Source: an archaeon
GTDB lineage: Archaea > EX4484-52 > B79-G9
NCBI GenBank assembly: GCA_043813875.1
Contig: JBDRKP010000010.1
Span: 1-15,095 of the forward strand
Reading direction: 5' to 3'
Length of the DNA stretch: 15,095 nucleotides
The position numbers and the translations under genes were made by a program. Shown piece by piece: positions 945-14,900 of the stretch. The notes under the pieces were generated by a model. The model saw only the letters and a list, made by a program, of their open reading frames with translations. It was not told the DNA's origin and made no database searches. Positions within the stretch are counted from its first letter, which is position 1. Each line of letters begins with the position of its first letter.

Positions 945-3215
945 ATGGAAGATTGCTCTCGTGGAAAAGAAGTTGATGAACGTGCAGATGAGCAAGGATT
1001 CATGGATGTATCGCGCATCGTGGAGTTCGGAATCTCTGAAAAGGTTGTTCCTGTTTTTCTTGCTGAGGGAATAACGAGACTCAATCCGCCGCAGACTATG
1101 GCGCTTAACCAGGGGCTGCTAACTTCCAAGAATATGGTTGTCGCGTGCCCTACTGCTTCGGGGAAGACGATCATCGCGGAACTTGCGATCGTCAATACTG
1201 TGCTTAATCTCAAAAAGAAGGCTGTGTATATCGTGCCGCTCAAGGCGCTCGGGTCTGAGAAGTACAAGGATTTTCGTGAGAAGTACGAGCCGCTCGGGAT
1301 GAAGGTCGCTCTTTCGATGGGCGGGGCGGATTCGAAGGATACCTGGCTTGAAGGGTATGACGTGATAATCGTGACTGCTGAGAAGCTTGACAGCCTGCTC
1401 CGGCACGGGATTGACTGGGTGAAGGATATCGGGCTTGTGGTTTGCGATGAGATACATCTTCTGAATGATGTGTCGAGAGGGCCTACGCTTGAGGTGACTA
1501 TCACAAGGCTTCGCGATCTTGCAACGTTCCAGATACTTGGCCTCTCGGCGACTATCAGCAATGCAGTCGAGCTTTCCAAATGGTTAAAGGCGGAGCTCGT
1601 GAAGTCAGATTACAGGCCTGTCGAGCTTCTTACAGGGGTATATCATGATTCGAAGCTTTATTTTTCAGGCAATTCGCAGCCGATAAACAGGCAGGCTGAC
1701 AGCATGCTTGCGCTTATCGAGCATATTATGGGGCTTGGCAAGCAGGCGATTGTGTTCGTTAATTCGAGGCCGAGCGCTGAGAGCCAGGCGGAGAAGATAG
1801 GGGCGGTCACCAAGAAGTTCTCTAAAGGGATGGATGATGTTTCGGACAAAATACTTCATGTGCTCTCTCATCCGACTAAGCAGTGCAGGAGGCTTGCGAG
1901 GGTTGTAGCGGACGGGGCGGCGTTCCATCATGCGGGGCTTGCGCCAAAACAGAAGGAACTTATCGAGGAGAATTTCAAGAACGGGAAGATCAAGGTGATA
2001 TGCGCTACGCCGACGCTTGCCGCGGGGGTTAATCTTCCTGCCGCTTATGTGGTTGTGCGGGACCTTACGAGGTATCTTGGCGGATACGGGATGAGGCCGA
2101 TACCTGTGCTTGAGTTCCAGCAGATGGCGGGGCGGGCGGGAAGGCCGAAGTATGATGACAAGGGTGTCGCTCTTGCATGCGCGAAGAATGAATATGAGAT
2201 CGAGCGAGTCATGGATGAATATATCAATGCAGAGTCAGAGAAGATATTTTCAAAACTTGCGCTTGAGCCCGTTCTGCGCACGCACATATTGTCGCTTGTC
2301 GCCACAGGGCATGTGTATACTGACAGGCAGCTGATGGATTTCATGGAGAAGACGTTCTATGCATATCAATATAATGACCTGTATGAACTTGAGAGGAACG
2401 TCAAGAAGATCATCGATATGCTTATCGGATATCGGCTGATCGATGCGAATGAAGAGGGGGACATCTCTAGCCCTTCGCTTTTCCAGAGCGCGGACTCTTA
2501 TATGGCTTTGAAGAAGATGAAGGCCACACCACTTGGAAAGAGAGTGGCTGAGCTTTATATCGATCCTGATACTGCGTGGCTTTTTGTGCATGCGCTCCGG
2601 AACTGCGTCATGAAGAAGGTGTCTGAGATCGCGCTGCTGCATCTCGTGTGCTCTGCCCTTGAGATGAGGCCGCTGCTCCGGGTAGGGAAGGGAGAATATG
2701 AGACGATATACGAGGATCTTGACAAGGCTACCGGGCGGCTGATTGTTCCTGATTTTTCCAAGGCGGATGAGGAGAGGCATATATGTGCTTTCAAGACGGC
2801 TCTTGCGCTTGATGCATGGACTGATGAGAAGGATGAGGACTATCTTTTTGAGACGTACAAGATGAGCCCGGGGGAGCTTAGGGTGAAGCTTGATAATGCG
2901 GACTGGCTGCTTTATTCGGTTGGGGAGATAGCAGGAATCGTCGGCGTACGATCTGTACAAGGATTGATAATGGAGCTAAGAAGCAGGCTGAAGTACGGCG
3001 TGAAGAAGGAACTACTTCCCCTTGTTAAGATACGCGGGATAGGAAGGGTGAGGGCGAGGGCGCTTTTCAAGATAGGTGTCACGGATCTTACGTCGGTGAA
3101 GGATGCCAGCTTTCCGGCGCTTGTGAAGGCTGTCGGGCAGAAGACGGCGGAGGCGCTGAAGAAGAGGACGGGGGAAAATCCGGATGATTTGAGAGAGCAG
3201 AGGAGGTTTGGGTGA
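945..3215 (+). CDS. hel308: Ski2-like ATP-dependent DNA helicase Hel308/Hjm
   Basis: SF2 motifs PTASGKT, DEIH, SAT, HHAGL, TPTLAAGVNLPA and QMAGRAGRP, plus C-terminal HhH GIGRVRAR; length about 750 aa. The start may be 945 (TTAAAATA at 918-925 fits a leaderless start) or the ATG at 1002. Confidence 0.95.
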   Translation: MEDCSRGKEVDERADEQGFMDVSRIVEFGISEKVVPVFLAEGITRLNPPQTMALNQGLLTSKNMVVACPTASGKTIIAELAIVNTVLNLKKKAVYIVPLKALGSEKYKDFREKYEPLGMKVALSMGGADSKDTWLEGYDVIIVTAEKLDSLLRHGIDWVKDIGLVVCDEIHLLNDVSRGPTLEVTITRLRDLATFQILGLSATISNAVELSKWLKAELVKSDYRPVELLTGVYHDSKLYFSGNSQPINRQADSMLALIEHIMGLGKQAIVFVNSRPSAESQAEKIGAVTKKFSKGMDDVSDKILHVLSHPTKQCRRLARVVADGAAFHHAGLAPKQKELIEENFKNGKIKVICATPTLAAGVNLPAAYVVVRDLTRYLGGYGMRPIPVLEFQQMAGRAGRPKYDDKGVALACAKNEYEIERVMDEYINAESEKIFSKLALEPVLRTHILSLVATGHVYTDRQLMDFMEKTFYAYQYNDLYELERNVKKIIDMLIGYRLIDANEEGDISSPSLFQSADSYMALKKMKATPLGKRVAELYIDPDTAWLFVHALRNCVMKKVSEIALLHLVCSALEMRPLLRVGKGEYETIYEDLDKATGRLIVPDFSKADEERHICAFKTALALDAWTDEKDEDYLFETYKMSPGELRVKLDNADWLLYSVGEIAGIVGVRSVQGLIMELRSRLKYGVKKELLPLVKIRGIGRVRARALFKIGVTDLTSVKDASFPALVKAVGQKTAEALKKRTGENPDDLREQRRFG
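3134..3215 (+). repeat. Direct repeat copy 1 (attL-like), the functional 3' end of hel308
   Basis: 3134-3169 (CGGGCAGAAGACGGCGGAGGCGCTGAAGAAGAGGAC) is identical to 4862-4897. Encodes GQKTAEALKKRTGENPDDLREQRRFG*. Confidence 0.95.
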
Positions 3216-3218
3216 AAG

Positions 3219-3800
3219 TCATTTCTTCATGCATTTTGGGGTCTTTGTGTAAAGTGTTTTTGCAAAGTCTTCCAGGCAGATTATGCTGTTTAGCTTTTTT
3301 CTTGTTTTTCTGGAGTAATATTCGTATTCTGTTCTTGTGACTGGTTTTTCTTCAAGGATGTTTTTTATAATCTGTTTTTCTTTTTTTGTGAATAGTCGGG
3401 AAAGCCACATCTCGAGATCCCTTTCTGCGTAGATTTTTTGCCTGTCGATCATCGAGATTGACTTGGAGGTCTCTGCTTTTTGCAGTTCAAATTCGTGGCT
3501 GAATTCTTCGTAGTCCTGGTTTCCTTTTGCGCTGTATTTTGGCAGGGGCTTGTTGATGTTGCTTTGTTCAAATATTTTTCGGGTGATGGATAAAATCTCG
3601 CTAAAGAGTTTTTTTTGGCGGGTTTTTTGGTATATTTTTTCTATGTCTATAGGGTAGTTGTATAGCAGGAAAGGTATGGCTTTCAGGTAGCGCGTGTCTT
3701 TGGATTTTAAAATTGAGAGGATTAGTTTTTCTTTGGTTTTGCCTGTGCCAAGCATCCTGAATCCGGCTTCACGCAACTCTTTTTCTATTGTTATTCCCAT
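3219..3800 (-). CDS. Lys-rich hypothetical protein, putative antitoxin or DNA-binding partner of the nucleotidyltransferase
   Basis: Likely start is the ATG at 3800 (MGITIEKEL), overlapping the last codons of the upstream gene. Basic helical C-terminus (LSRLFTKKEKQIIKNILEEKPVTRTEYEYYSRKTRKKL). Function inferred from context only. Confidence 0.6.
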   Translation of the reverse strand: MGITIEKELREAGFRMLGTGKTKEKLILSILKSKDTRYLKAIPFLLYNYPIDIEKIYQKTRQKKLFSEILSITRKIFEQSNINKPLPKYSAKGNQDYEEFSHEFELQKAETSKSISMIDRQKIYAERDLEMWLSRLFTKKEKQIIKNILEEKPVTRTEYEYYSRKTRKKLNSIICLEDFAKTLYTKTPKCMKK

Positions 3801-4408
3801 TTTCTGACCTCGTTTATGATTTCTTTTTCCTTGGTGAAGCCCCATTCTTCAAACTTTATCTCGATGAAGTCTAATAGTTTTTGTTTATAATTGGCAACTA
3901 TTGAGGATTCCATTGTCTCCTTATATCTGCCTGTGAGCTTCTGAATGTCTATTTCTTCAGTCTCAAGTATCCTTTTGATGTCATTGAAGTCTCTTGTATC
4001 TCCTCTTGCAAGTTTGCTGATTATGATGTCTAATAGTGAATGCGTGTAAAGTTCAATTTTTCCAAAAGTGTTTATGTAGCGCGATTGCTCTGTACAGTCA
4101 GACAGCAATTGAGTGCCCACGATGTTTGAGCCATGAAATAAATCGAAAGCAAGCCCCTCTTGAGTAAGCCAGCGGTAAGACCCTATTTTTTTGAATCCAA
4201 TCTGCCCAAAAATTTTACATATATAATCGTATTCTTTTTTTGAATCTATGTTGATGTCTATGTCCAAAGTTGATGCCTTGAGATTGAGGATTGTCAGTGC
4301 AGTTCCACCCAGCGCATACATATGGATATTTTCTTCAATGTATTTTGATATGGAGCGCAGTAATTCAAAGAGTTCTTCAGCATTGATTTCGTCTTTGTTA
4401 TGAGGCAT
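3791..4408 (-). CDS. DUF6036/AbiEii-like nucleotidyltransferase (type IV TA toxin-like)
   Basis: ALGGTAL...STLDIDI (GG plus DxD polymerase-beta motif) and C-terminal DIIISKLARGDTRDFNDI. Confidence 0.8.
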   Translation of the reverse strand: MPHNKDEINAEELFELLRSISKYIEENIHMYALGGTALTILNLKASTLDIDINIDSKKEYDYICKIFGQIGFKKIGSYRWLTQEGLAFDLFHGSNIVGTQLLSDCTEQSRYINTFGKIELYTHSLLDIIISKLARGDTRDFNDIKRILETEEIDIQKLTGRYKETMESSIVANYKQKLLDFIEIKFEEWGFTKEKEIINEVRKWE

Positions 4409-4415
4409 ATTTTTT

Positions 4416-4475
4416 ATTGTATCCGTAAATATATAAATATTACTATTTTTGTATATATAGATACAATTATTGTAT
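4416..4475 (-). promoter_or_regulatory. Promoter/operator of the nucleotidyltransferase operon
   Basis: Minus-strand TTTATAT at 4431-4437. Inverted repeats TTGTAT-N6-ATACAA (4449-4466) and ATACAAT-T-ATTGTAT (4461-4475), and a further ATTGTAT at 4416-4422. Confidence 0.55.
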
Positions 4476-4861
4476 TATTTTTAGATAAATGACTGCGAAA
4501 AACCAGAGAATCCCCGCATGCTATTAAGCGATATTTTATTATAGTTGATGTCGTTACTCGCGGGACAAATATGACCAATTAACCAATAGACATCAACCTA
4601 TCCTGGCGAATCTATGATTCGCTGGCTGCTAAAATTGCTACGCAATTTTAAGCATATGGAAAAGTCATATGTCCATTTTGAGGACGAAGTCCTCGAAAGC
4701 TTGGCATGTAAGTGCCATGAAAGAGTTATGACTTTTACTATAAATCCAAAACGAATAGCGACACATAGTGTAAATGAGAGCATGCAGCCCAGGAGTATAT
4801 CCATGGGCGGACGTTCTTATTGTAAGCGAGAGAGTTGATTTTGAATTGTTTTTTCTTCCAC

Positions 4862-4943
4862 CGGGCAGAAGACGGCGGAGGCGCTGAAGAAGAGGACAGG
4901 GGAGGATACTTTGGGGCTTAGGGAGCAAAGACGTCTATCATGA
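4862..4943 (+). pseudogene. Direct repeat copy 2 (attR-like), a displaced alternative hel308 3' end
   Basis: Encodes GQKTAEALKKRTGEDTLGLREQRRLS*. Same length as copy 1, with TGA at the equivalent position (offset 1728). Confidence 0.9.
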
Positions 4944-5001
4944 CAGCAAGGCCTTCTGCTTTTCTTGCGCCGTCATCGCAGCTCCTGATCTTTATCTGCA
5001 T
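4918..5001 (-). pseudogene. Truncated N-terminus of a 2-phosphosulfolactate phosphatase (ComB)-like gene
   Basis: Translates as MQIKIRSCDDGARKAEGLAVMIDVFAP*, resembling the ComB-family start (GAxxAxGxxVxIDVFRA). Minus-strand TATAAAA at 5025-5031. Family recognised by eye only. Confidence 0.55.
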
Positions 5002-5100
5002 ATCTTATATTGGGTGATGGAAGATTTTATATCTGAACCCTGTGATAACCGACGGTCTTGCGATACGTTTATAACGAGGCTCGGGCATTAATATATTGTT

Positions 5101-5934
5101 ATGAAATCTGACGGGCTCAATTTTATGCTGATCATGATATTGTTTGTCTTTGTCATTTCTGCCAGCGGCTGCACGGATAAAGAGGATGTTGCTGAAAAAC
5201 AGGCAAACCGAGACGGTGTGGCAGAATATACAAACCCTGATTGCGGCAACAACGCATGTGACTATTACAGACTAACATTGAAGGATGAGAGCGGCGGGGG
5301 AGCTATATATCTAAACGGCGAGTATCATACGATCATGTTGAAATCCGTCGACTCCAAGGACAAAGCTACAATCTGTATTGACAGGACTTGCGATCCTGTT
5401 GAATTGCGCAAGACCAAAGATATAGGCGGCGTATATGCGATTGCCGAGTCCATAATATTTTCTAAAAAAAACGGCGAAAGCAGCGTGACGCTGACGTTCG
5501 GTGAAAATGCAGAGACCTGCCCAACGGATTGTGTTAAGAGTTCAGGATATTGCGGAGATGGGATATGCAATGCACAGAAAGTGACTTTGATGGCAGGTGA
5601 AGAGAAGGAAGTGACTGTTGACGGGGCGACGGTCAAAGTGAAACTTGCGAGTCTTGTAAAGGATACTTATGAGTTTGAAATCACCGGGCCTGGTGAAATA
5701 AAGGCGAATTTCGGCGGGCGAGGTGCCGGACGCGGGGGTGTCGGTCAAAGCATACCGATAAAAGACCATCAGGGTCCGCGTGTCACCACGATGTATGCGG
5801 ATACAAGCGAGATGATAGGGATAGGATATGCTGTCACTGAGATTTTGGATGATTCGGTCACGATATTCCTTGGCGATGAGACAGAGACTACTGAAATATG
5901 TCCTGATTGCTACTCTGAACTTAAAGGAATATGA
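5101..5934 (+). CDS. Cys-rich surface lipoprotein with two internal modules
   Basis: Hydrophobic signal peptide with lipobox ASGC (Cys24). CGNNAC...ETCPTDC and CGDGIC...EICPDC motifs. TTTATAA at about 5068-5074. Confidence 0.75.
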   Translation: MKSDGLNFMLIMILFVFVISASGCTDKEDVAEKQANRDGVAEYTNPDCGNNACDYYRLTLKDESGGGAIYLNGEYHTIMLKSVDSKDKATICIDRTCDPVELRKTKDIGGVYAIAESIIFSKKNGESSVTLTFGENAETCPTDCVKSSGYCGDGICNAQKVTLMAGEEKEVTVDGATVKVKLASLVKDTYEFEITGPGEIKANFGGRGAGRGGVGQSIPIKDHQGPRVTTMYADTSEMIGIGYAVTEILDDSVTIFLGDETETTEICPDCYSELKGI

Positions 5935-5988
5935 CGAGGATTTATTAAAATCAGAAACCAATAAATAATCACGATTCTGGCGAATTAT

Positions 5989-6711
5989 ATGGAAGAGATA
6001 ACAGTCTACAAGCTCAAGGATATGAATCTTAAAGGCGCAACTGTCATCAACGGTTTCCCGTCAGCAGGGCTTGTGAGCGCAATCACTGCCAATTACCTTA
6101 TCGGGGCGATGAAACTAGACCAGATCGCTGCGCTTGACTCGCCGGCATTCCCTGCAATCTCTATGATATACAATGCCAAGCCAAAGCTGCCGGCAAGGAT
6201 ATATGCGGATGAAAAAGCCAAGATTGTCGTATTCATCTCTGAGTTCAGCCCTTTGCCATATCTTATAAGGCCTCTTGCATATACTATTTTTGATTTCATT
6301 GAACAAAAAAAATGCTCGCGAATAATAGCTCCTGAAATGATGCCGGTACATGACGGCCATGTGGAGGTATATGGTGTCGGAAGCACTGATAATGCAAGGG
6401 CGACCATGCAGAAGAGCCAGATAAAACCGATTGTTCACGGGATTATAGCAGGTATTTCGGGAGTGCTGCTGAATGAAGGCAGAAGACGTAATTTTGATGT
6501 AATCACACTGGTCGCACAGGCCAGACAGGAAGTGACTAATGCGAGGGCTGCAGCCATGCTAATCGAGAAGATCAGCAAGATAGCCGATATAAGCATAGAT
6601 ACTGTGCCTCTGAACCGCGAGTCTGAAAGAATTGAGAAATGGATCAAAAATCTCAGAGAGCAATCAAAAACAGCTGCCAAGTCGCCGGATCATCTTAATA
6701 TGTACGGCTGA
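5989..6711 (+). CDS. PAC2-family proteasome assembly chaperone (PbaA/PbaB-like)
   Basis: INGFPSAGLVSAITANYLI, PARIY, GIIAGISGVLL and NARAAAMLI motifs. C-terminus MYG resembles an HbYX tail. Confidence 0.9.
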   Translation: MEEITVYKLKDMNLKGATVINGFPSAGLVSAITANYLIGAMKLDQIAALDSPAFPAISMIYNAKPKLPARIYADEKAKIVVFISEFSPLPYLIRPLAYTIFDFIEQKKCSRIIAPEMMPVHDGHVEVYGVGSTDNARATMQKSQIKPIVHGIIAGISGVLLNEGRRRNFDVITLVAQARQEVTNARAAAMLIEKISKIADISIDTVPLNRESERIEKWIKNLREQSKTAAKSPDHLNMYG

Positions 6712-6774: not shown

Positions 6775-7965
6775 ATGTATTCTTATTCGAAAATCCAGTG
6801 CTTTTTCAATTGCCCAATGATGTTTCGTCTCAGGTATCTCGATAAGGTCAAGGTCGAGAGATTCGAGAGCATCGAGGCGTTCATGGGGGGGCGGGTGCAT
6901 GAGGCTCTTGAAAAGCTATACAAAGACCAGATGCATCACAAGGAGAATTCGCTCGATGACATTTCCGGGTTCTATAATACGATGTGGCAGAAGAAGTATA
7001 GCGATGCCGTACAAGTCATCAAGAAGCAGTATACTGCGGATAATTATTTTGATATGGGCAGAAAGTATATCGAAGATTATTATCTGAAGCATTCACCGTT
7101 TGCGGGTGGGATGACTGTCGGGCTTGAGGAAAAGATAACCCTGAAGTTGAAGAATCATACGATTCTCGGATATATTGACCGGCTTTCTGTGAATAAGGAT
7201 AATACCTATGAGATACATGACTACAAGACTTCCGCAAGCATGCCGCATAAGGCGTATTTCGATACTGATGAGCAGCTTGCGCTGTATGCTATCGGGGTAA
7301 AAAACAGGTATGAAGATGCCAAGAAGGTTAAACTGGTGTGGCATTATCTTGCGTTCAACAAGGCGGTTGAGGTCTTTCGCACGGACAATGAACTTGAGGC
7401 CACAAAGGATAGCGTGACCAGAAAAATCGGAGTGATCGAGGATGCACAAAAGAAGAGCAATTTTCTTCCTAATGAATCCAAGCTCTGCCTGTGGTGCGAG
7501 TACCAGAGAATATGCCCTGTAAAGAAACACAGGTTCCTGACAGATCCCGAGCCAAAAGAAGCTGAAAAGGAATCCGCGGCTGAACTTGCAGACCACTATG
7601 CACATCTTAAGAACAAGCAGAGTGAAATCAATGAGAAAATAGAAGTGATAAGGAATAGGCTGATAGAATATTCCAAGAAAAATAATCTGAGTGCTGTTGA
7701 CGGGAAAGAACATACAGTGAAAGTCAATGAGAGCAAGGAATTAAGGTATCCGAGAGCTGGTGAGGATGACAGGAAAAAACTTGAGGAATATCTGAGGAAT
7801 GTCAAGCTCTGGGAGAAGGTATCTGTGCTTGATGCGCATGCTCTTAACAGGTTAATGAAAGAGACGCTTGTCGACAGGAAAATCGCTGAGAAGATAAGGA
7901 GTTTTGCTGAGGAGGAAATCACATACAAGGTCACGATCGGCAAAAAGAGGAAGGAGGAGGATTGA
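6775..7965 (+). CDS. PD-(D/E)XK nuclease, RecB/Cas4-like, with Fe-S staple and C-terminal extension
   Basis: YSYSKIQCFFNCP, GGRVHEALE, GYIDRL, IHDYKT, QLALYA and CLWCEYQRICP (1+3 Cys arrangement), followed by about 140 aa of charged helical sequence. Confidence 0.9.
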   Translation: MYSYSKIQCFFNCPMMFRLRYLDKVKVERFESIEAFMGGRVHEALEKLYKDQMHHKENSLDDISGFYNTMWQKKYSDAVQVIKKQYTADNYFDMGRKYIEDYYLKHSPFAGGMTVGLEEKITLKLKNHTILGYIDRLSVNKDNTYEIHDYKTSASMPHKAYFDTDEQLALYAIGVKNRYEDAKKVKLVWHYLAFNKAVEVFRTDNELEATKDSVTRKIGVIEDAQKKSNFLPNESKLCLWCEYQRICPVKKHRFLTDPEPKEAEKESAAELADHYAHLKNKQSEINEKIEVIRNRLIEYSKKNNLSAVDGKEHTVKVNESKELRYPRAGEDDRKKLEEYLRNVKLWEKVSVLDAHALNRLMKETLVDRKIAEKIRSFAEEEITYKVTIGKKRKEED

Positions 7966-8976
7966 ATGGGGAGACGGCTGAAGAGGAAGAATTGGCTGAA
8001 GAGCATCATTTTTATAATTATTGCAATCGCTCTTGCGGCTATCGTACAGGATGAGAGCCTTGCAGATTATATCCGACCAGAGAAAACTGTGACTGAGACC
8101 AATATTGCGCCGGAGGTGTATTTCTGTCCTCTAGGACCATGCAGGGATATGCTGAACAGGCTGCTTGAAAGCGCTAATGAGTCAATACACTGTGCCATAT
8201 ATGATGTCGAACTGGTGGAGATACTTGAGACATACAAAGAAAAGAGCGCTTCAATCGAGACAAAGCTTGTGACGGATAAGGATAATGCAAAGCATCTTAG
8301 CGATATCGAGTATGTCGCAAATACCGGCACTTACCAGCTTATGCATAACAAGTTCTGCATAATCGATGGCAAGATCGTGTTCACGGGGTCGTATAACCCG
8401 ACTATCACGGGGATGCAGAATGACAATAATATGATGATAATATACTCAAAGTATATTTCTGATAACTATGAGAAGGAGTTCTCTGAGCTTTATGGCAAGG
8501 AGTTCGGAGGGGGATGCGATACGCCAAATCCCGTTGTCTATCTTAACGGGATGAAAGTTGAGAATTATTTCTGCCCCGAGGACGGGTGCGGCGAGCATGT
8601 GATGGAGGCGCTTATGGGCGCGAGAGAGTCTATTGATTTTATGACGTTTTCTTTTACACATGATGGTATCGGGGATACAATTGTCAATAAGCATAAGCAA
8701 GGGATTGCGGTGAGAGGGGTGTTTGAAAAGTTCCAGAACAGCCAATGGTCGGAGTATGAAAAATTAAAGGATGAAGGCATAGATGTCAGATTCGATACGA
8801 ACCCGAAGAATATGCATAATAAGGTGTTTATTGTCGATAATGATACGGTCATCACAGGATCATTCAATCCTACTAAAGCGGCTGATACTGAAAATGATGA
8901 GAATATCATCATCATACATGACAGGGAAATCGCAGGCAAGTATCTTTCAGAGTTTGCGAGAATATATGGCGGTTAG
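7966..8976 (+). CDS. Phospholipase D superfamily protein (two HKD motifs, Nuc-like), N-terminally membrane-anchored
   Basis: HNKFCIIDGKIVFTGSYN and HNKVFIVDNDTVITGSFN; basic N-terminus followed by a TM helix. The ATG directly follows the upstream TGA, with GGAGG upstream. Confidence 0.9.
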   Translation: MGRRLKRKNWLKSIIFIIIAIALAAIVQDESLADYIRPEKTVTETNIAPEVYFCPLGPCRDMLNRLLESANESIHCAIYDVELVEILETYKEKSASIETKLVTDKDNAKHLSDIEYVANTGTYQLMHNKFCIIDGKIVFTGSYNPTITGMQNDNNMMIIYSKYISDNYEKEFSELYGKEFGGGCDTPNPVVYLNGMKVENYFCPEDGCGEHVMEALMGARESIDFMTFSFTHDGIGDTIVNKHKQGIAVRGVFEKFQNSQWSEYEKLKDEGIDVRFDTNPKNMHNKVFIVDNDTVITGSFNPTKAADTENDENIIIIHDREIAGKYLSEFARIYGG

Positions 8977-10670: not shown

Positions 10671-10701
10671 GAAGTAATTTTTGTTGCAGAATTATAAAAA
10701 T

Positions 10702-10849
10702 TCATGAAATTTTCATGCGATTGAATCATTTCAAGCTTTTTTATTGTGAAGAGATACTTTATACACAATAAAAAATCATGAAATTTCTGTGCTATTTTTG
10801 CATTTCAAGTTTTTTTATTGTCTGTATATAGTTTATACACAATAAAAAA
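10702..10849. repeat. Imperfect tandem repeat, 2 x 74 bp, each unit with an internal inverted repeat
   Basis: Units 10702-10775 and 10776-10849 share TCATGAAATTT, CATTTCAAG, TTTTTTATTGT and TTTATACACAATAAAAAA at an exact 74-bp offset. Confidence 0.9.
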
Positions 10850-11065
10850 TATTACTTTCAGGAGAACTTGTGGAATGTCCGATGCAAACCAAAGAATCGA
10901 GGGATACAGACCAACGTATTATAACTCCACATGAAATGAGGGGGTGTTCTGAAATGATGGAAAACGCAACGAATCACTAGCGTATATGTTATACGTTTGT
11001 TTTTAAGTAAAATACGGACAAAAATCATACATAGGTATAAATTATTGCCTTGCGAACAGCATGCC

Positions 11066-11985: not shown

Positions 11986-14900
11986 TCACATACCTACAAG
12001 TAATCCTGCTTTTAAACAGATCCCCTGTATCCTGAAATCTGAACAAGAGCCGTTTCGGTTCTCAAAATATCCGCCACATCTATCCTTGCTACCCCATCTG
12101 TAGAATTCGGTGATTGGACCAGCAGTCGTGCCATCGAGCCGGTGGGTGTCAAAACCACAACCGGCAGCAATATAGCCGGCCGGACAATCAACGGTAGCTT
12201 CGCAGACGTTTCCATAAAAGGACGTAGCCTTCTGCCATAATTCTGTAACTGAGGTGGTATCTTTCAGACAGATGGCCTGTATCCTGAAATCCGAACAAGT
12301 GCCATTTTGATTTTCAAAGTATCCGCTACACCTGTTCTTGCCAGCCCATCTGTAGAATTCGGTGATCGGACCAGCAGTCGTGCCATCGAGCCGCTGGGTG
12401 TCAAAACCACAACCGGTAGCAATATAGCCGGCCGGACAATCAACGGCAGCTTCGCAGACGTTTCCATAAAAGGACGAAGCATTCTGCCATAATTCCGTAA
12501 CTGAAGCGGTATCTTTCAGACAGATGGCCTGTATCCTGAAATCCGAACAAGCGCCATTTAGATTTTCAAAGTATCCGCTACATCGGTTGTTGCCAGCCCA
12601 TCTGTAGAATTCGGTGATCGGACCAGCGGTCGTGCCATCGAGCCGCTGGGTGTCAAAACCACAGCCATTTGCAATATAACCTGCCGGACAGTCAACGGTA
12701 GCTTCGCAGACGTTTCCATAAAAGGAATTTGCAGCCTTCCAGACAACTGTTGATTCCCGGACTGAATCTGAAGGTATTATTATGGTCTTTGTCAAAATGT
12801 TGTTGTTTTCGTTGGATTCATCGACAGTGTTGTCGTAATCAACTATTGCTTTGAGTGTGTTTTCACCAACTTTAAAGTTGGGCGTGCCTCTTTTGTTCGT
12901 GAATGTCTGGCCTGGCCCCAAGTTGTTGAAACCAGAATCTCCGCCATTGAGGTCATTTAAATAAAACTGGAGTTTGAAAGCACCAGTGTCTTTGTTGCCC
13001 CTGTTTTTTATTGTGACATCATGCTGAAGCCTTTTAATGCCGTCTGAACCGGTGCTTAGGTAAAGATCGATATTTTCAACTGTGAGGTCCGGCTTTGAAC
13101 AATCAGGATCCTTTCCGTCTACAAGATCATCACAATCGTTGTCGATCCAATCCGTGCAGATCTCTGTTGCTCCCGGATTTATAGTGGGATTACGGTCATT
13201 ACAATCATTACATTCGCCATCGTATCCGTCATTATCGTTGTCGGTCTCGACATGATAGGAGATACATTTTGAACGTGATGTTCCCTGATACATACAATCA
13301 TAAACTGTGTAAAGGGATGTGCCATCAGAGTCATTTTTACATCCATCTAGGCCGCAGTCGCTATCTTTGGTGCAGACGTAATTCGGGGAACCTATTGTTT
13401 TTGCGAGAACATTGTTGTTTTCGTTTGATTCGTTGACCCTTCCTTCCCAGTCTATTGTCGCAGAGATATTTATATAATCGCCACAGAAGGCGCCGATTAA
13501 ACTGCAGGTATAACCACCGGTCAGCTCACACATACCTGGAGCGGGTACTTTGAATCTATAATAACGGTTGCCTGGGAACTCTGTTCCAGTATTCTCGTTC
13601 CTGAGCTTTATCAAAAAATCACTGTCGCTTGATCCAGAGCCAATGTTACAGTATTTTACTTTGATAAAGTAGGATCCATCGTAATAGATGTCGCGCACTA
13701 CAAGGTCTGGTTTTGCGGTCTCATTTATACAGGCACCATCGTAACAGCCGGCAGGGCAAGTATATGAAGTGGTCACCCCATAATCTAATACTCCGCCAGT
13801 AATATCTCTTCCACAGTCCTGTTCAATAAGTGTGTTGGTGTCCTTACAATAATCCCAGCCATACCCTGATAAATTTACATATCCTTTGACATAATAATCC
13901 GGACCGCCATCTGAGTCAGTGCATGTGTTTGTAGGAGCAGGCGCTGGCGCTGAAACGCATGCGCCGTCTAGACATCCTGAAAAACCATATGCTTTGCAAT
14001 TGTATGATACGGAGCCACAATGTTTTGGATCCTGCATCAAAGGCTCGCAAGTGTAATCTATCAAGTAATCGCTTCCTTCACAAACGTCAACATGAACTCC
14101 TTGTGCGTCTGTACAAGTGCCTTTTGTCCTGAGTTTCTTTAGGTTAGCTGCATCATCACCTACGAACTGATCTGTGTTTGTGCAGGTAGATGGTACATTT
14201 GTGCATCGTATACAGTAATGCTCTGTGTCTGGACTTAAACCGCAGCCGATTTCGCGGTTATACCATTTTTCTATCGCACCTACTGCATTGCATTGCCCGT
14301 TCCAGTCGGCGTATGTTCCACACCAGTATCCAGAACCATAAGTCTTTTCGCAATCGACAATATATTCCGATTGATCCTTTTCTTGATTGTAAACGCAGGT
14401 CAAGGCTGTGTTTGGATAAGTTAAATCGATGATATCTGTACCACCTTGTCTTACACAAGGCGCGTTTATGGAGCTTGCGCATTCATCTAAATTACAACAG
14501 TATTTCTCAACTGATTGCCTGTAGCTGCCAGAGTATCTGCCGGTAGTCTTGCATCTTAATGGAGATGAGCAGTCACTGTCTATGGTGCAGTTTTTGCCGT
14601 AAGATGAGGTCTCTCTACAAGCAAAACATTCGTTAGGCCCAAGTACGGTAATAACATGAGCATTGTTCTTTAAATCAATTTCAGCCCCATAGCAACCACC
14701 TAAATTTAAGGGTTCTGTACCATGATTGCGCCATACCCATAATTTTATGCCGCATATAGGGTGATTCTGTTCCTTGAGCTCAATCAAGTATTCTGTGCCT
14801 TGTGAATCCGTACAGCCTTTTTCAAGGACCTTTATGTCGTAATCATTCTTTGTCAATAAGGGTATGCTTATATGATTGTGGCATTGCGGCTCTGCACATG

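Follow-up and report, generated by a model that had tools for sequence, protein, structure and literature searches.

A recombinase-free two-gene cassette between two copies of the hel308 gene tail in an ultra-small archaeon

In Escherichia coli, e14 and phage 21 insert at the 3′ end of icd, which receives an alternative, largely synonymous end while the original end is left as a fragment; these elements span many kilobases and carry their own integrase. The cis-mobilizable elements (CIMEs) at the 3′ end of fda in Streptococcus thermophilus and the pseudo-staphylococcal cassette chromosome (pseudo-SCC) elements at rlmH are flanked by att sites, have no recombination genes of their own and use one fixed att sequence in common with a known helper integrase. 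Little is understood of how toxin-antitoxin or defence cassettes move when they lack a recombinase, especially in reduced genomes of the DPANN type. For type VI secretion system (T6SS) effector-immunity and rhs loci, homology-facilitated illegitimate recombination (HFIR) that leaves displaced 3′ regions behind has been proposed, according to the accessible part of one study (Kirchberger et al, 2017, PMC5361080). Here, we analyse a stretch of archaeal DNA of 15,095 nt (the window), which is the entire contig C10 of a 1.64-Mb, 90-contig metagenome-assembled genome (G000), and in which a cassette encoding a DUF6036 nucleotidyltransferase and a partner protein lies between the intact helicase gene hel308 and a displaced second copy of the end of that gene. 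The same arrangement is found at further gene ends, both in this tiny archaeon and in others, and suggests an exchange of gene ends between lineages through recombination.

Two hel308 tails and the insert between them

The last 82 nt of hel308, or 27 codons (3134-3215), are present again as a direct repeat at 4862-4943, 1728 bp downstream. The two copies are identical over a 36-nt core (0/36 differing positions) and then differ at 22 of the remaining 46 positions (Fisher p = 3e-7), with the hel308 frame kept and TGA at the same position in both. We refer to the copy attached to hel308 as tail 1 and to the displaced copy as tail 2; the second copy is a fragment, as stops close the frame upstream of 4862. 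The window has no exact 36-mer repeat other than the core, except for the 252-nt tandem repeats at 12009-12764. The swapped tip of the helicase comprises 15 residues beyond the helix-hairpin-helix (HhH) domain, contains no toxin domain and is present as a single displaced copy. Between the tails, the insert of 1.65 kb holds only two overlapping genes, both on the minus strand. The G+C content of the insert is 0.37-0.40 (sliding windows wholly inside 3151-4350) and 0.29-0.32 over the promoter region, compared with 0.48-0.55 in hel308 and 0.438 in the genome. Groundwater metagenome runs contain sequence of the window, and the join between tail 1 and the cassette is carried by one public-run contig (X1, 3123-3344) with zero differences.

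The divergence between the tails is of a coding type. Summed over the six gene-tail pairs for which Table 1 lists codon differences, 35 are synonymous and 28 non-synonymous, with two in-frame codon indels; random single changes in the hel308 tail are expected to be synonymous in about 22% of cases, and a binomial test of 35:28 against a synonymous share of 0.30 gives p = 2e-5. In addition, the reading frame and the stop codon are kept in every displaced gene tail. The preserved frame and stop, together with the synonymous excess, indicate that the displaced tails derive from functional alleles of other lineages and not from decayed duplicates. An earlier note, made from the window's letters alone, had reported that the hel308 tail is present twice, with the 36-nt core, the shared stop position and seven listed synonymous codon pairs, and had proposed that both tails evolved under protein-level selection in different lineages. 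The former points are confirmed throughout, and the latter is borne out by the ratio of 7:6 at hel308 and of 35:28 over the six pairs. Template and variable repeats resembling those of a diversity-generating retroelement were also considered and rejected, as no reverse transcriptase is present and the mismatches, by eye, are not linked to adenine.

Table 1. Positions of the features in the window, the cassette loci with flanking repeats and the tail-flanked islets of G000. L numbers denote individual loci from homology scans and G numbers genomes; aa, amino acids; ORF, open reading frame; MITE, miniature inverted-repeat transposable element.
Feature	Position	Strand	Description	Codon differences between tail copies (synonymous : non-synonymous)
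hel308	945..3215	+	Target gene, intact, 756 aa; Pfam DEAD, Helicase_C, HTH_61, Helicase_dom4_arc, HHH_5	7 : 6
36-nt core, copy 1	3134..3169	+	Codons GQKTAEALKKRT; same letters as 4862-4897	
Tail 1	3170..3215	+	Expressed hel308 C-terminus, ending ..TGENPDDLREQRRFG and stop; genus-typical distance to relatives	
Partner gene (p208)	3219..3800 (longest ORF to 3845)	-	193 aa from Met16 (208 aa in longest ORF); stop 3 nt from hel308 stop	
DUF6036 nucleotidyltransferase gene	3791..4408	-	205 aa; Pfam PF19502 at 5e-12; overlaps partner start by 10 nt	
Cassette promoter/operator	4432..4474	-	TATA-containing block 4432-4454 and 13-nt palindrome TACAATAATTGTA 4462-4474, ~66 nt before nucleotidyltransferase start	
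Filler from cassette end to tail 2	4481..4861		~380 nt, unique except for the MITE-like copy	
MITE-like multi-hairpin repeat copy	4538..4745		Inside filler	
Displaced hel308 tail fragment	4862..4943	+	Core copy 2 (4862-4897) and tail 2 (4898-4943), ending ..TGEDTLGLREQRRLS and stop	
Two G000-specific genes	5101..6711	+	Between tail 2 and PD-(D/E)XK/PLD pair; variable region, outside cassette	
277-aa ORF	5101-5934	+	No match in five genus relatives	
PAC2 (proteasome assembly chaperone) paralogue	5989-6711	+	Best matches 23-25% identical in five genus relatives	
L077 repeat			53 nt, 90.6%; spacing 1661; 3′ end of unnamed 293-aa gene, convergent with partner; starts at stop codon	3 : 2
L089 repeat			106 nt, 95%; spacing 2136; end of co-directional VanZ gene	2 : 0, plus one in-frame codon indel
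L090 repeat			137 nt, 98.5%; spacing 1703; 3′ end of UvrD-HRDC helicase gene, convergent with partner; starts 5 nt past stop	1 : 1
L101 repeat	3931-4032/5478-5579		102 nt, 80%; spacing 1547; intergenic	
L104 repeat	5258-5311/6684-6742		59 nt, 78%; spacing 1426; intergenic	
G000 islet C34	C34:18468-19914		M50 peptidase tail, 62 nt at 92%; cargo three small ORFs	3 : 3, one synonymous being TGA/TAA
G000 islet C69	C69:777-2079		UvrD_C/PD-(D/E)XK (nuclease-helicase) gene tail, 276 nt at 82%; cargo one 246-aa ORF	19 : 16, plus one codon indel
G000 islet C18	C18:15119-16252		TPR gene tail, 31 nt identical; cargo one 386-aa ORF	

The cassette, its control region and its spread

The insert is a discrete, widespread and conserved two-gene operon with its own operator and TATA box. 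The nucleotidyltransferase contains the invariant residues of a GG...DxD...D pattern (G34, G35, D49, D51 and D89). Its structural model has a predicted local distance difference test (pLDDT) score of 94.3, and Foldseek matches it to TM1012, MenT1 and LnuA at E values of 2e-5 to 5e-4; further matches include ANT(2'')-Ia, MenT3 and MenT4, the whole range being E 2e-5 to 2e-2 at a TM of about 0.5. Profile matches to AbiEii are weak, and a sequence search of the PDB gave no match. Judged from the model, the protein has a predicted pol-beta-type fold with catalytic carboxylates and is MenT-like.

The partner protein has 177 homologues, mostly from records labelled Woesearchaeota or Nanoarchaeota, none of which is functionally named by its source. 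It matches no Pfam, NCBIfam or PADLOC family beyond a chance-level hit to Drt5, and is thus not a member of AbiEi or MenA. Its model is all-helical (pLDDT 81.7) and finds no Foldseek match at E ≤ 0.001, while VIA-align places residues 114-186 against sigma-70 region 4 at a weak Z of 5-6. The C-terminal part of the partner may therefore contain a helix-turn-helix (HTH) resembling sigma region 4, which we take as a hint and not as proof, and the partner would be expected to bind the palindromic operator. The C-terminal end of the G000 partner agrees with that of its closest relatives, so the gene has not been cut; its nearest homologue is 83% identical and is encoded on a contig of 55.7 kb. Searches of the insert against Pfam, NCBIfam and PADLOC revealed no recombinase family, and tRNA and Rfam searches of the window gave no match. 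The cassette is probably a toxin-antitoxin-like addiction or defence module.

A scan with the alignment of the partner protein against one genome per species returned 30 other archaeal loci, and in 28 of these the partner gene is immediately preceded by the nucleotidyltransferase gene; a contig end cuts one copy, another is truncated and a third is divided between two frames. The palindrome pattern stands ~56-81 nt upstream of the nucleotidyltransferase start in 25 of the 27 copies with a placeable start. It is followed by ATACAAAAATAG..ATTTATA, and similarity between copies ends just upstream of it. The promoter block occurs once in G000 and once in each of three of the five other cassette genomes (0-1 mismatches), the remaining two having a variant. 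Since the block always adjoins the cassette, it is the cassette's own control region. Together, these features define a widespread, uncharacterised operon with a clear predicted operator. Among the matches listed in a literature search on archaeal integrated elements, repeat-flanked toxin-antitoxin cassettes and DPANN mobile elements, which covered titles and abstracts outside subscription journals, neither the cassette nor tail-flanked cassettes in DPANN archaea are described, and a search of the same reach yielded no paper on DUF6036.

The distribution of the cassette is patchy. Within the order of the window, the nucleotidyltransferase is found in 2 of 42 genomes, G000 and its genus relative G007 (the same set of 42 genomes was returned for the order and for the phylum). 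The two cassettes share 84% DNA identity over 785 nt, in contrast to three neighbouring genes, with 73% for hel308, 74% for the DUF362 gene and 70% for the phospholipase D (PLD) gene. Cassette neighbours also vary between loci. Given the patchy distribution and the identity of 84% versus 70-74%, the cassette appears to be accessory and mobile. In G007, the cassette copy is a truncated relic, found 1.8 kb after hel308 and oriented as in the window. At this locus (L040, 4053-4594), the cassette is cut at nucleotidyltransferase residue 124 and abuts a gene fragment, which by eye looks like an N-terminal piece of hemL (glutamate-1-semialdehyde aminomutase); the junction reflects either a rearrangement or a chimeric contig.

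Recurrence at other gene ends and the route of insertion

Besides the window, five cassette loci are bounded by direct repeats (Table 1), and all six repeat-bounded units are 1.4-2.1 kb in length and hold the same gene pair. At L077, L089 and L090, the repeats end 0-5 nt from the stop of the neighbouring gene, which is a different gene each time, and the convergent arrangement of gene tail and cassette at L077 and L090 matches that of the window. L101 and L104 are flanked by mutually homologous repeats, which are placed 5-8 nt beyond the stops of genes unrelated to one another and have no match among tRNAs or Rfam families. A solo third copy of this repeat is located at G046 C73:19868-19977, beside a similar unit (starting CTGCGAGGGGAG). 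The units of L077, L090, L101 and L104 contain no further ORF of at least 60 aa, and that of L089 carries an additional 464 nt. The upstream repeat has its inner end 81-105 nt before the nucleotidyltransferase start in five flanked copies out of six, L089 among them, and 453 nt before it in the window, whereas the right-hand boundary varies from 3 to 464 nt after the partner stop. By eye, the repeats of the window, L077, L089 and L090 have no common core. In a strict test that required repeats ≥45 nt long and no more than 500 nt away on each side, with shifted positions in the same loci as controls, flanking repeats were present at 4 of 22 testable cassette loci and at 3 of 319 control positions. 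Two weaker or more distant repeat pairs, L091 (23 nt) and L096 (111 nt, 75%, further off), are left out of the five repeat-bounded loci. In the nearest relative of the L090 genome, with a helicase that is 78% identical, the cassette is absent and the gene order is different.

Tail-flanked islets also occur in G000 with other cargo. A scan of this genome for unique direct repeats 0.5-8 kb apart gave 56 seed clusters, eight of which were examined, four of them with Pfam. Three are islets behind gene tails (Table 1) with cargo unrelated to the DUF6036/partner pair, and a cluster on C38 looks like a paralogue duplication. The gene order around the C69 islet is not conserved in genus relatives. That three islets carry unrelated cargo points to a route at the level of the host and not to one encoded by the cassette.

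How did the cassette come to lie between two tails? The account that we favour, at about an even chance, is displacement of the C-terminus by homology-guided insertion, of either Campbell or HFIR type, with the result kept by addictive cargo. The cassette would arrive at the hel308 end linked to the hel308 tail of another lineage, and homologous recombination by the host within the tail would then produce a complete hel308, followed by the cassette and the displaced second tail. This could proceed by a single crossover with a circular molecule (the Campbell-type route) or by one homologous and one illegitimate joint (HFIR). The 36-nt block would represent the stretch in which the alleles were identical or were made so by recombination, and addictive cargo would oppose loss through repeat-by-repeat excision. 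Displacement fits the variation in repeat length and in the right-hand boundary, the diversity of target genes, the allelic nature of the tails, the missing recombinase and the islets with other cargo.

Which of the two tails is foreign? Across the final 46 nt, four genus relatives agree with tail 1 at 30-34 positions and with tail 2 at 23-27, and the two tails agree with each other at 24 of 46. The level of matching for tail 1 is that expected from the gene-wide identity of 68-73%, and in both copies the core has Arg-Thr codons specific to G000 where the four relatives have Lys-Val or Lys-Ile. The comparison of distances leans toward tail 1 as the native one, but it is not decisive, as identity in 120-nt windows of hel308 ranges from 50 to 88% and with such local variation in rate 46 nt cannot decide which tail is native.

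Several observations weigh against homology-guided displacement. A crossover within the core would make the attached tail that of the donor, as the earlier note had proposed, yet tail 1 is genus-typical. Moreover, a simple crossover alone does not predict 36 identical bases beside 48% divergence; the sharp switch from 36/36 to 24/46 matches needs a conversion tract, or conspecific partners with an earlier tail swap. The nearest relatives available for tracing the state before insertion are only 74-79% identical in Hel308 at the amino-acid level. Logan contigs at a depth of 2-5, which among the pieces listed do not cover 4801-5016, show no empty-site joint, circle joint or excised allele, and this speaks neither for nor against insertion. 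The strict test left the window unscored through a mis-set end coordinate, and L089 as well, with its repeat 465-567 nt from the cassette and thus beyond the 500-nt limit. Finally, the sequence of 60-100 nt shared by L101 and L104 may represent a small repeat element or a site of att type rather than a gene tail.

This shared repeat, together with the tight left boundary at the operator, keeps two rival explanations alive. Under one of these, the cassette would be a CIME-like satellite, bounded by att sites and moved site-specifically in trans by a tyrosine recombinase whose gene lies on a helper or in another part of the genome. Minimal repeat-bounded units without a recombinase would be expected of such a satellite; G000 has two intact and one broken PF00589 genes on other contigs, L101 and L104 show homologous flanking repeats in two genomes with unrelated neighbours, with a solo third copy in one genome, and archaeal elements do use 3′-distal parts of protein genes, in 14 of 68 cases in Thaumarchaeota in the available portion of one survey (PMC6563490). 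We nonetheless regard a satellite as unlikely, because the window, L077, L089 and L090 share no core, repeat lengths range from 53 to 137 nt at the cassette and from 31 to 276 nt at the other G000 islets with mismatches spread along the repeats, and the right-hand boundary is loose; in addition, no second tail was found at the other hel308 loci examined, and IMG/VR contigs contain neither the cassette nor the 36-nt core. Alternatively, one of the cassette proteins might itself direct insertion at gene ends, as a recombinase or targeting factor of a new kind. The enrichment of flanking repeats at the cassette in the strict test, the near-constant distance from the upstream repeat to the nucleotidyltransferase gene and a partner without a known family speak for this, but the G000 islets with different cargo have no such genes, the model of the nucleotidyltransferase is similar to enzymes of this type that act on small molecules and tRNA, the all-helical partner gives weak HTH-like matches and the cassette has no conserved right end, so that we consider this quite improbable.

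Decay and artefact can be weighed on the same evidence. The earlier note had described a small island without an integrase, which agrees with the six compact units, and had offered as one option that it is the relic of a larger element. The lack of a recombinase, the MITE-like insertion in the filler at 4481-4861 and the truncated copy in G007 would be compatible with the remnant of a provirus or plasmid from which the integrase and most other genes have disappeared; however, independent decay would not converge on six units of such uniform size with the same operator and gene pair, four of these units hold no other ORF of 60 aa or more and the G000 partner gene is not cut. We therefore hold this option to be very improbable. 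That the assembly has fused two strains at this locus, or that a transposition-like event has left a long duplication of its target site, seems to us the least probable of all. The source is metagenome-assembled and no matching public-run contig covers the junction at 4862, but the same architecture is seen in independent assemblies of other organisms, the join of tail 1 and cassette is present in a public run and two recorded contigs encode an identical nucleotidyltransferase, the longer of them having 15,218 nt compared with 15,095 nt for the window. As for transposition, Pfam finds no transposase in the window, the island ends have no terminal inverted repeats, and the repeats are 53-137 nt long with a coding pattern of divergence. 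Target-site duplication followed by drift is ruled out, since it cannot yield 0/36 versus 22/46 differences with seven synonymous changes and a kept stop.

The hel308 3′ flank and comparison with known systems

The 3′ flank of hel308 is a variable spot and not a demonstrated att site. No second hel308 tail is present in four same-genus relatives, in which 277 to about 6,400 nt are readable downstream (the contigs of most genus relatives end soon after hel308), nor in 30 metagenome hel308 loci or 27 genome loci, all from distant relatives; the metagenome scan used the C-terminal 256 aa of Hel308 as query, and each of its 30 loci is at most 48% identical. Taken with the cassette family standing at the ends of other genes elsewhere, this does not uphold hel308 as the att site of the island, the role given to it in the earlier note. 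The variable cargo that the note had anticipated downstream of hel308 is found within the genus, as G002, G003, G005 and G007 all differ. In G003, hel308 is followed by another ORF to which no identity is assigned, in G005 by an ORF for a membrane protein (by eye) and then a PD-(D/E)XK/PLD pair, and in G007 by a Cys-rich ORF and then the cassette relic. In G002 (L038), a convergent 84-codon ORF, by eye for a HicA-like toxin, occupies the place of the cassette, and the contig stops 277 nt after hel308.

Other features of the window and its relatives lie outside the cassette. The PAC2 paralogue downstream of tail 2 has no counterpart at E ≤ 1e-25 in any of 41 other genomes of the phylum. The gene pair at 6775-8976, for a PD-(D/E)XK (Cas4/AddB-like) protein and a two-domain PLD nuclease, is conserved downstream of hel308 in G005, also occurs in other members of the genus and may serve in repair or defence. 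The MITE-like repeat of 4538-4745 has TATAG...CTATA ends and is modular, built from a 62-nt hairpin that is present in about 30 copies, a pair of short hairpins and an outer stem around optional hairpins, and it has about 40 matches elsewhere in G000 and many in all five genus relatives searched. A second dispersed family is represented at 10694-10850 by two tandem 74-nt units with internal inverted repeats and occurs on many contigs of all five genus relatives. A gene that runs off the contig end and encodes a CARDB-domain surface protein of more than 950 aa contains three 252-nt units in tandem (79-100% identical) at 12009-12764. In the family-level relatives G011, G012 and G014 (L016-L018), each hel308 match contains one in-frame TAA, which could mean a broken gene, two genes or recoding.

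What does the window share with the systems described so far? Its two-gene cargo resembles the MenAT modules of Mycobacterium tuberculosis and AbiE, as the nucleotidyltransferase model matches the folds of MenT1, MenT3 and MenT4 and the genes form an overlapping operon with a predicted palindromic operator. Unlike in those modules, the nucleotidyltransferase belongs to the Pfam family DUF6036, its gene comes first and the partner is neither AbiEi nor MenA. In their archaeal host and in the 3′ end of a protein gene as target, archaeal integrated elements are likewise comparable, although in the accessible parts of the published accounts the smallest cryptic element, of 2.6 kb, has an integrase gene and short flanking repeats are described for the thaumarchaeal elements. 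With elements of the e14/icd type, the window has in common direct repeats of which one forms the 3′ end of an intact target gene, but its unit is 1.7 kb long and lacks an integrase, and the same repeat is not reused across genomes, with L101 and L104 as the exception. The repeats of the cassette differ in sequence and length between loci, which also sets it apart from CIMEs and pseudo-SCC elements.

The repeatable signature, in which a gene tail is followed by cargo and the cargo by a displaced allelic tail, points to insertion guided by homology and predicts mosaic C-termini in core genes such as those for Hel308 and UvrD-type helicases. We tentatively raise the possibility, which we rate well below an even chance, that recombinase-free cassettes with captured host-gene ends form a distinct class of mobile elements in ultra-small archaea. 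Such cassettes would rely on homologous recombination by the host and on addictive cargo, the DUF6036/HTH pair would be among their commonest cargoes and the C-termini of housekeeping proteins, here DNA helicases, would be routinely exchanged between lineages.

The closest parallel in layout is the displacement at rhs, contact-dependent inhibition (CDI) and T6SS loci. There, the tip is a toxin domain and the cargo includes an immunity gene, while the window has a housekeeping helicase as its target, a tip of just the residues that follow the HhH domain, a nucleotidyltransferase/regulator pair as cargo, a single displaced tip instead of an array and an ultra-small archaeon as its host. Nevertheless, as far as the accessible sections of the literature on these loci go, both arrangements combine a constant gene body with a new 3′ tip and downstream cargo, the tips coming from other lineages, and in both the old tip lies downstream, retains part of the conserved region at its start as a direct repeat and is accompanied by no dedicated recombinase.

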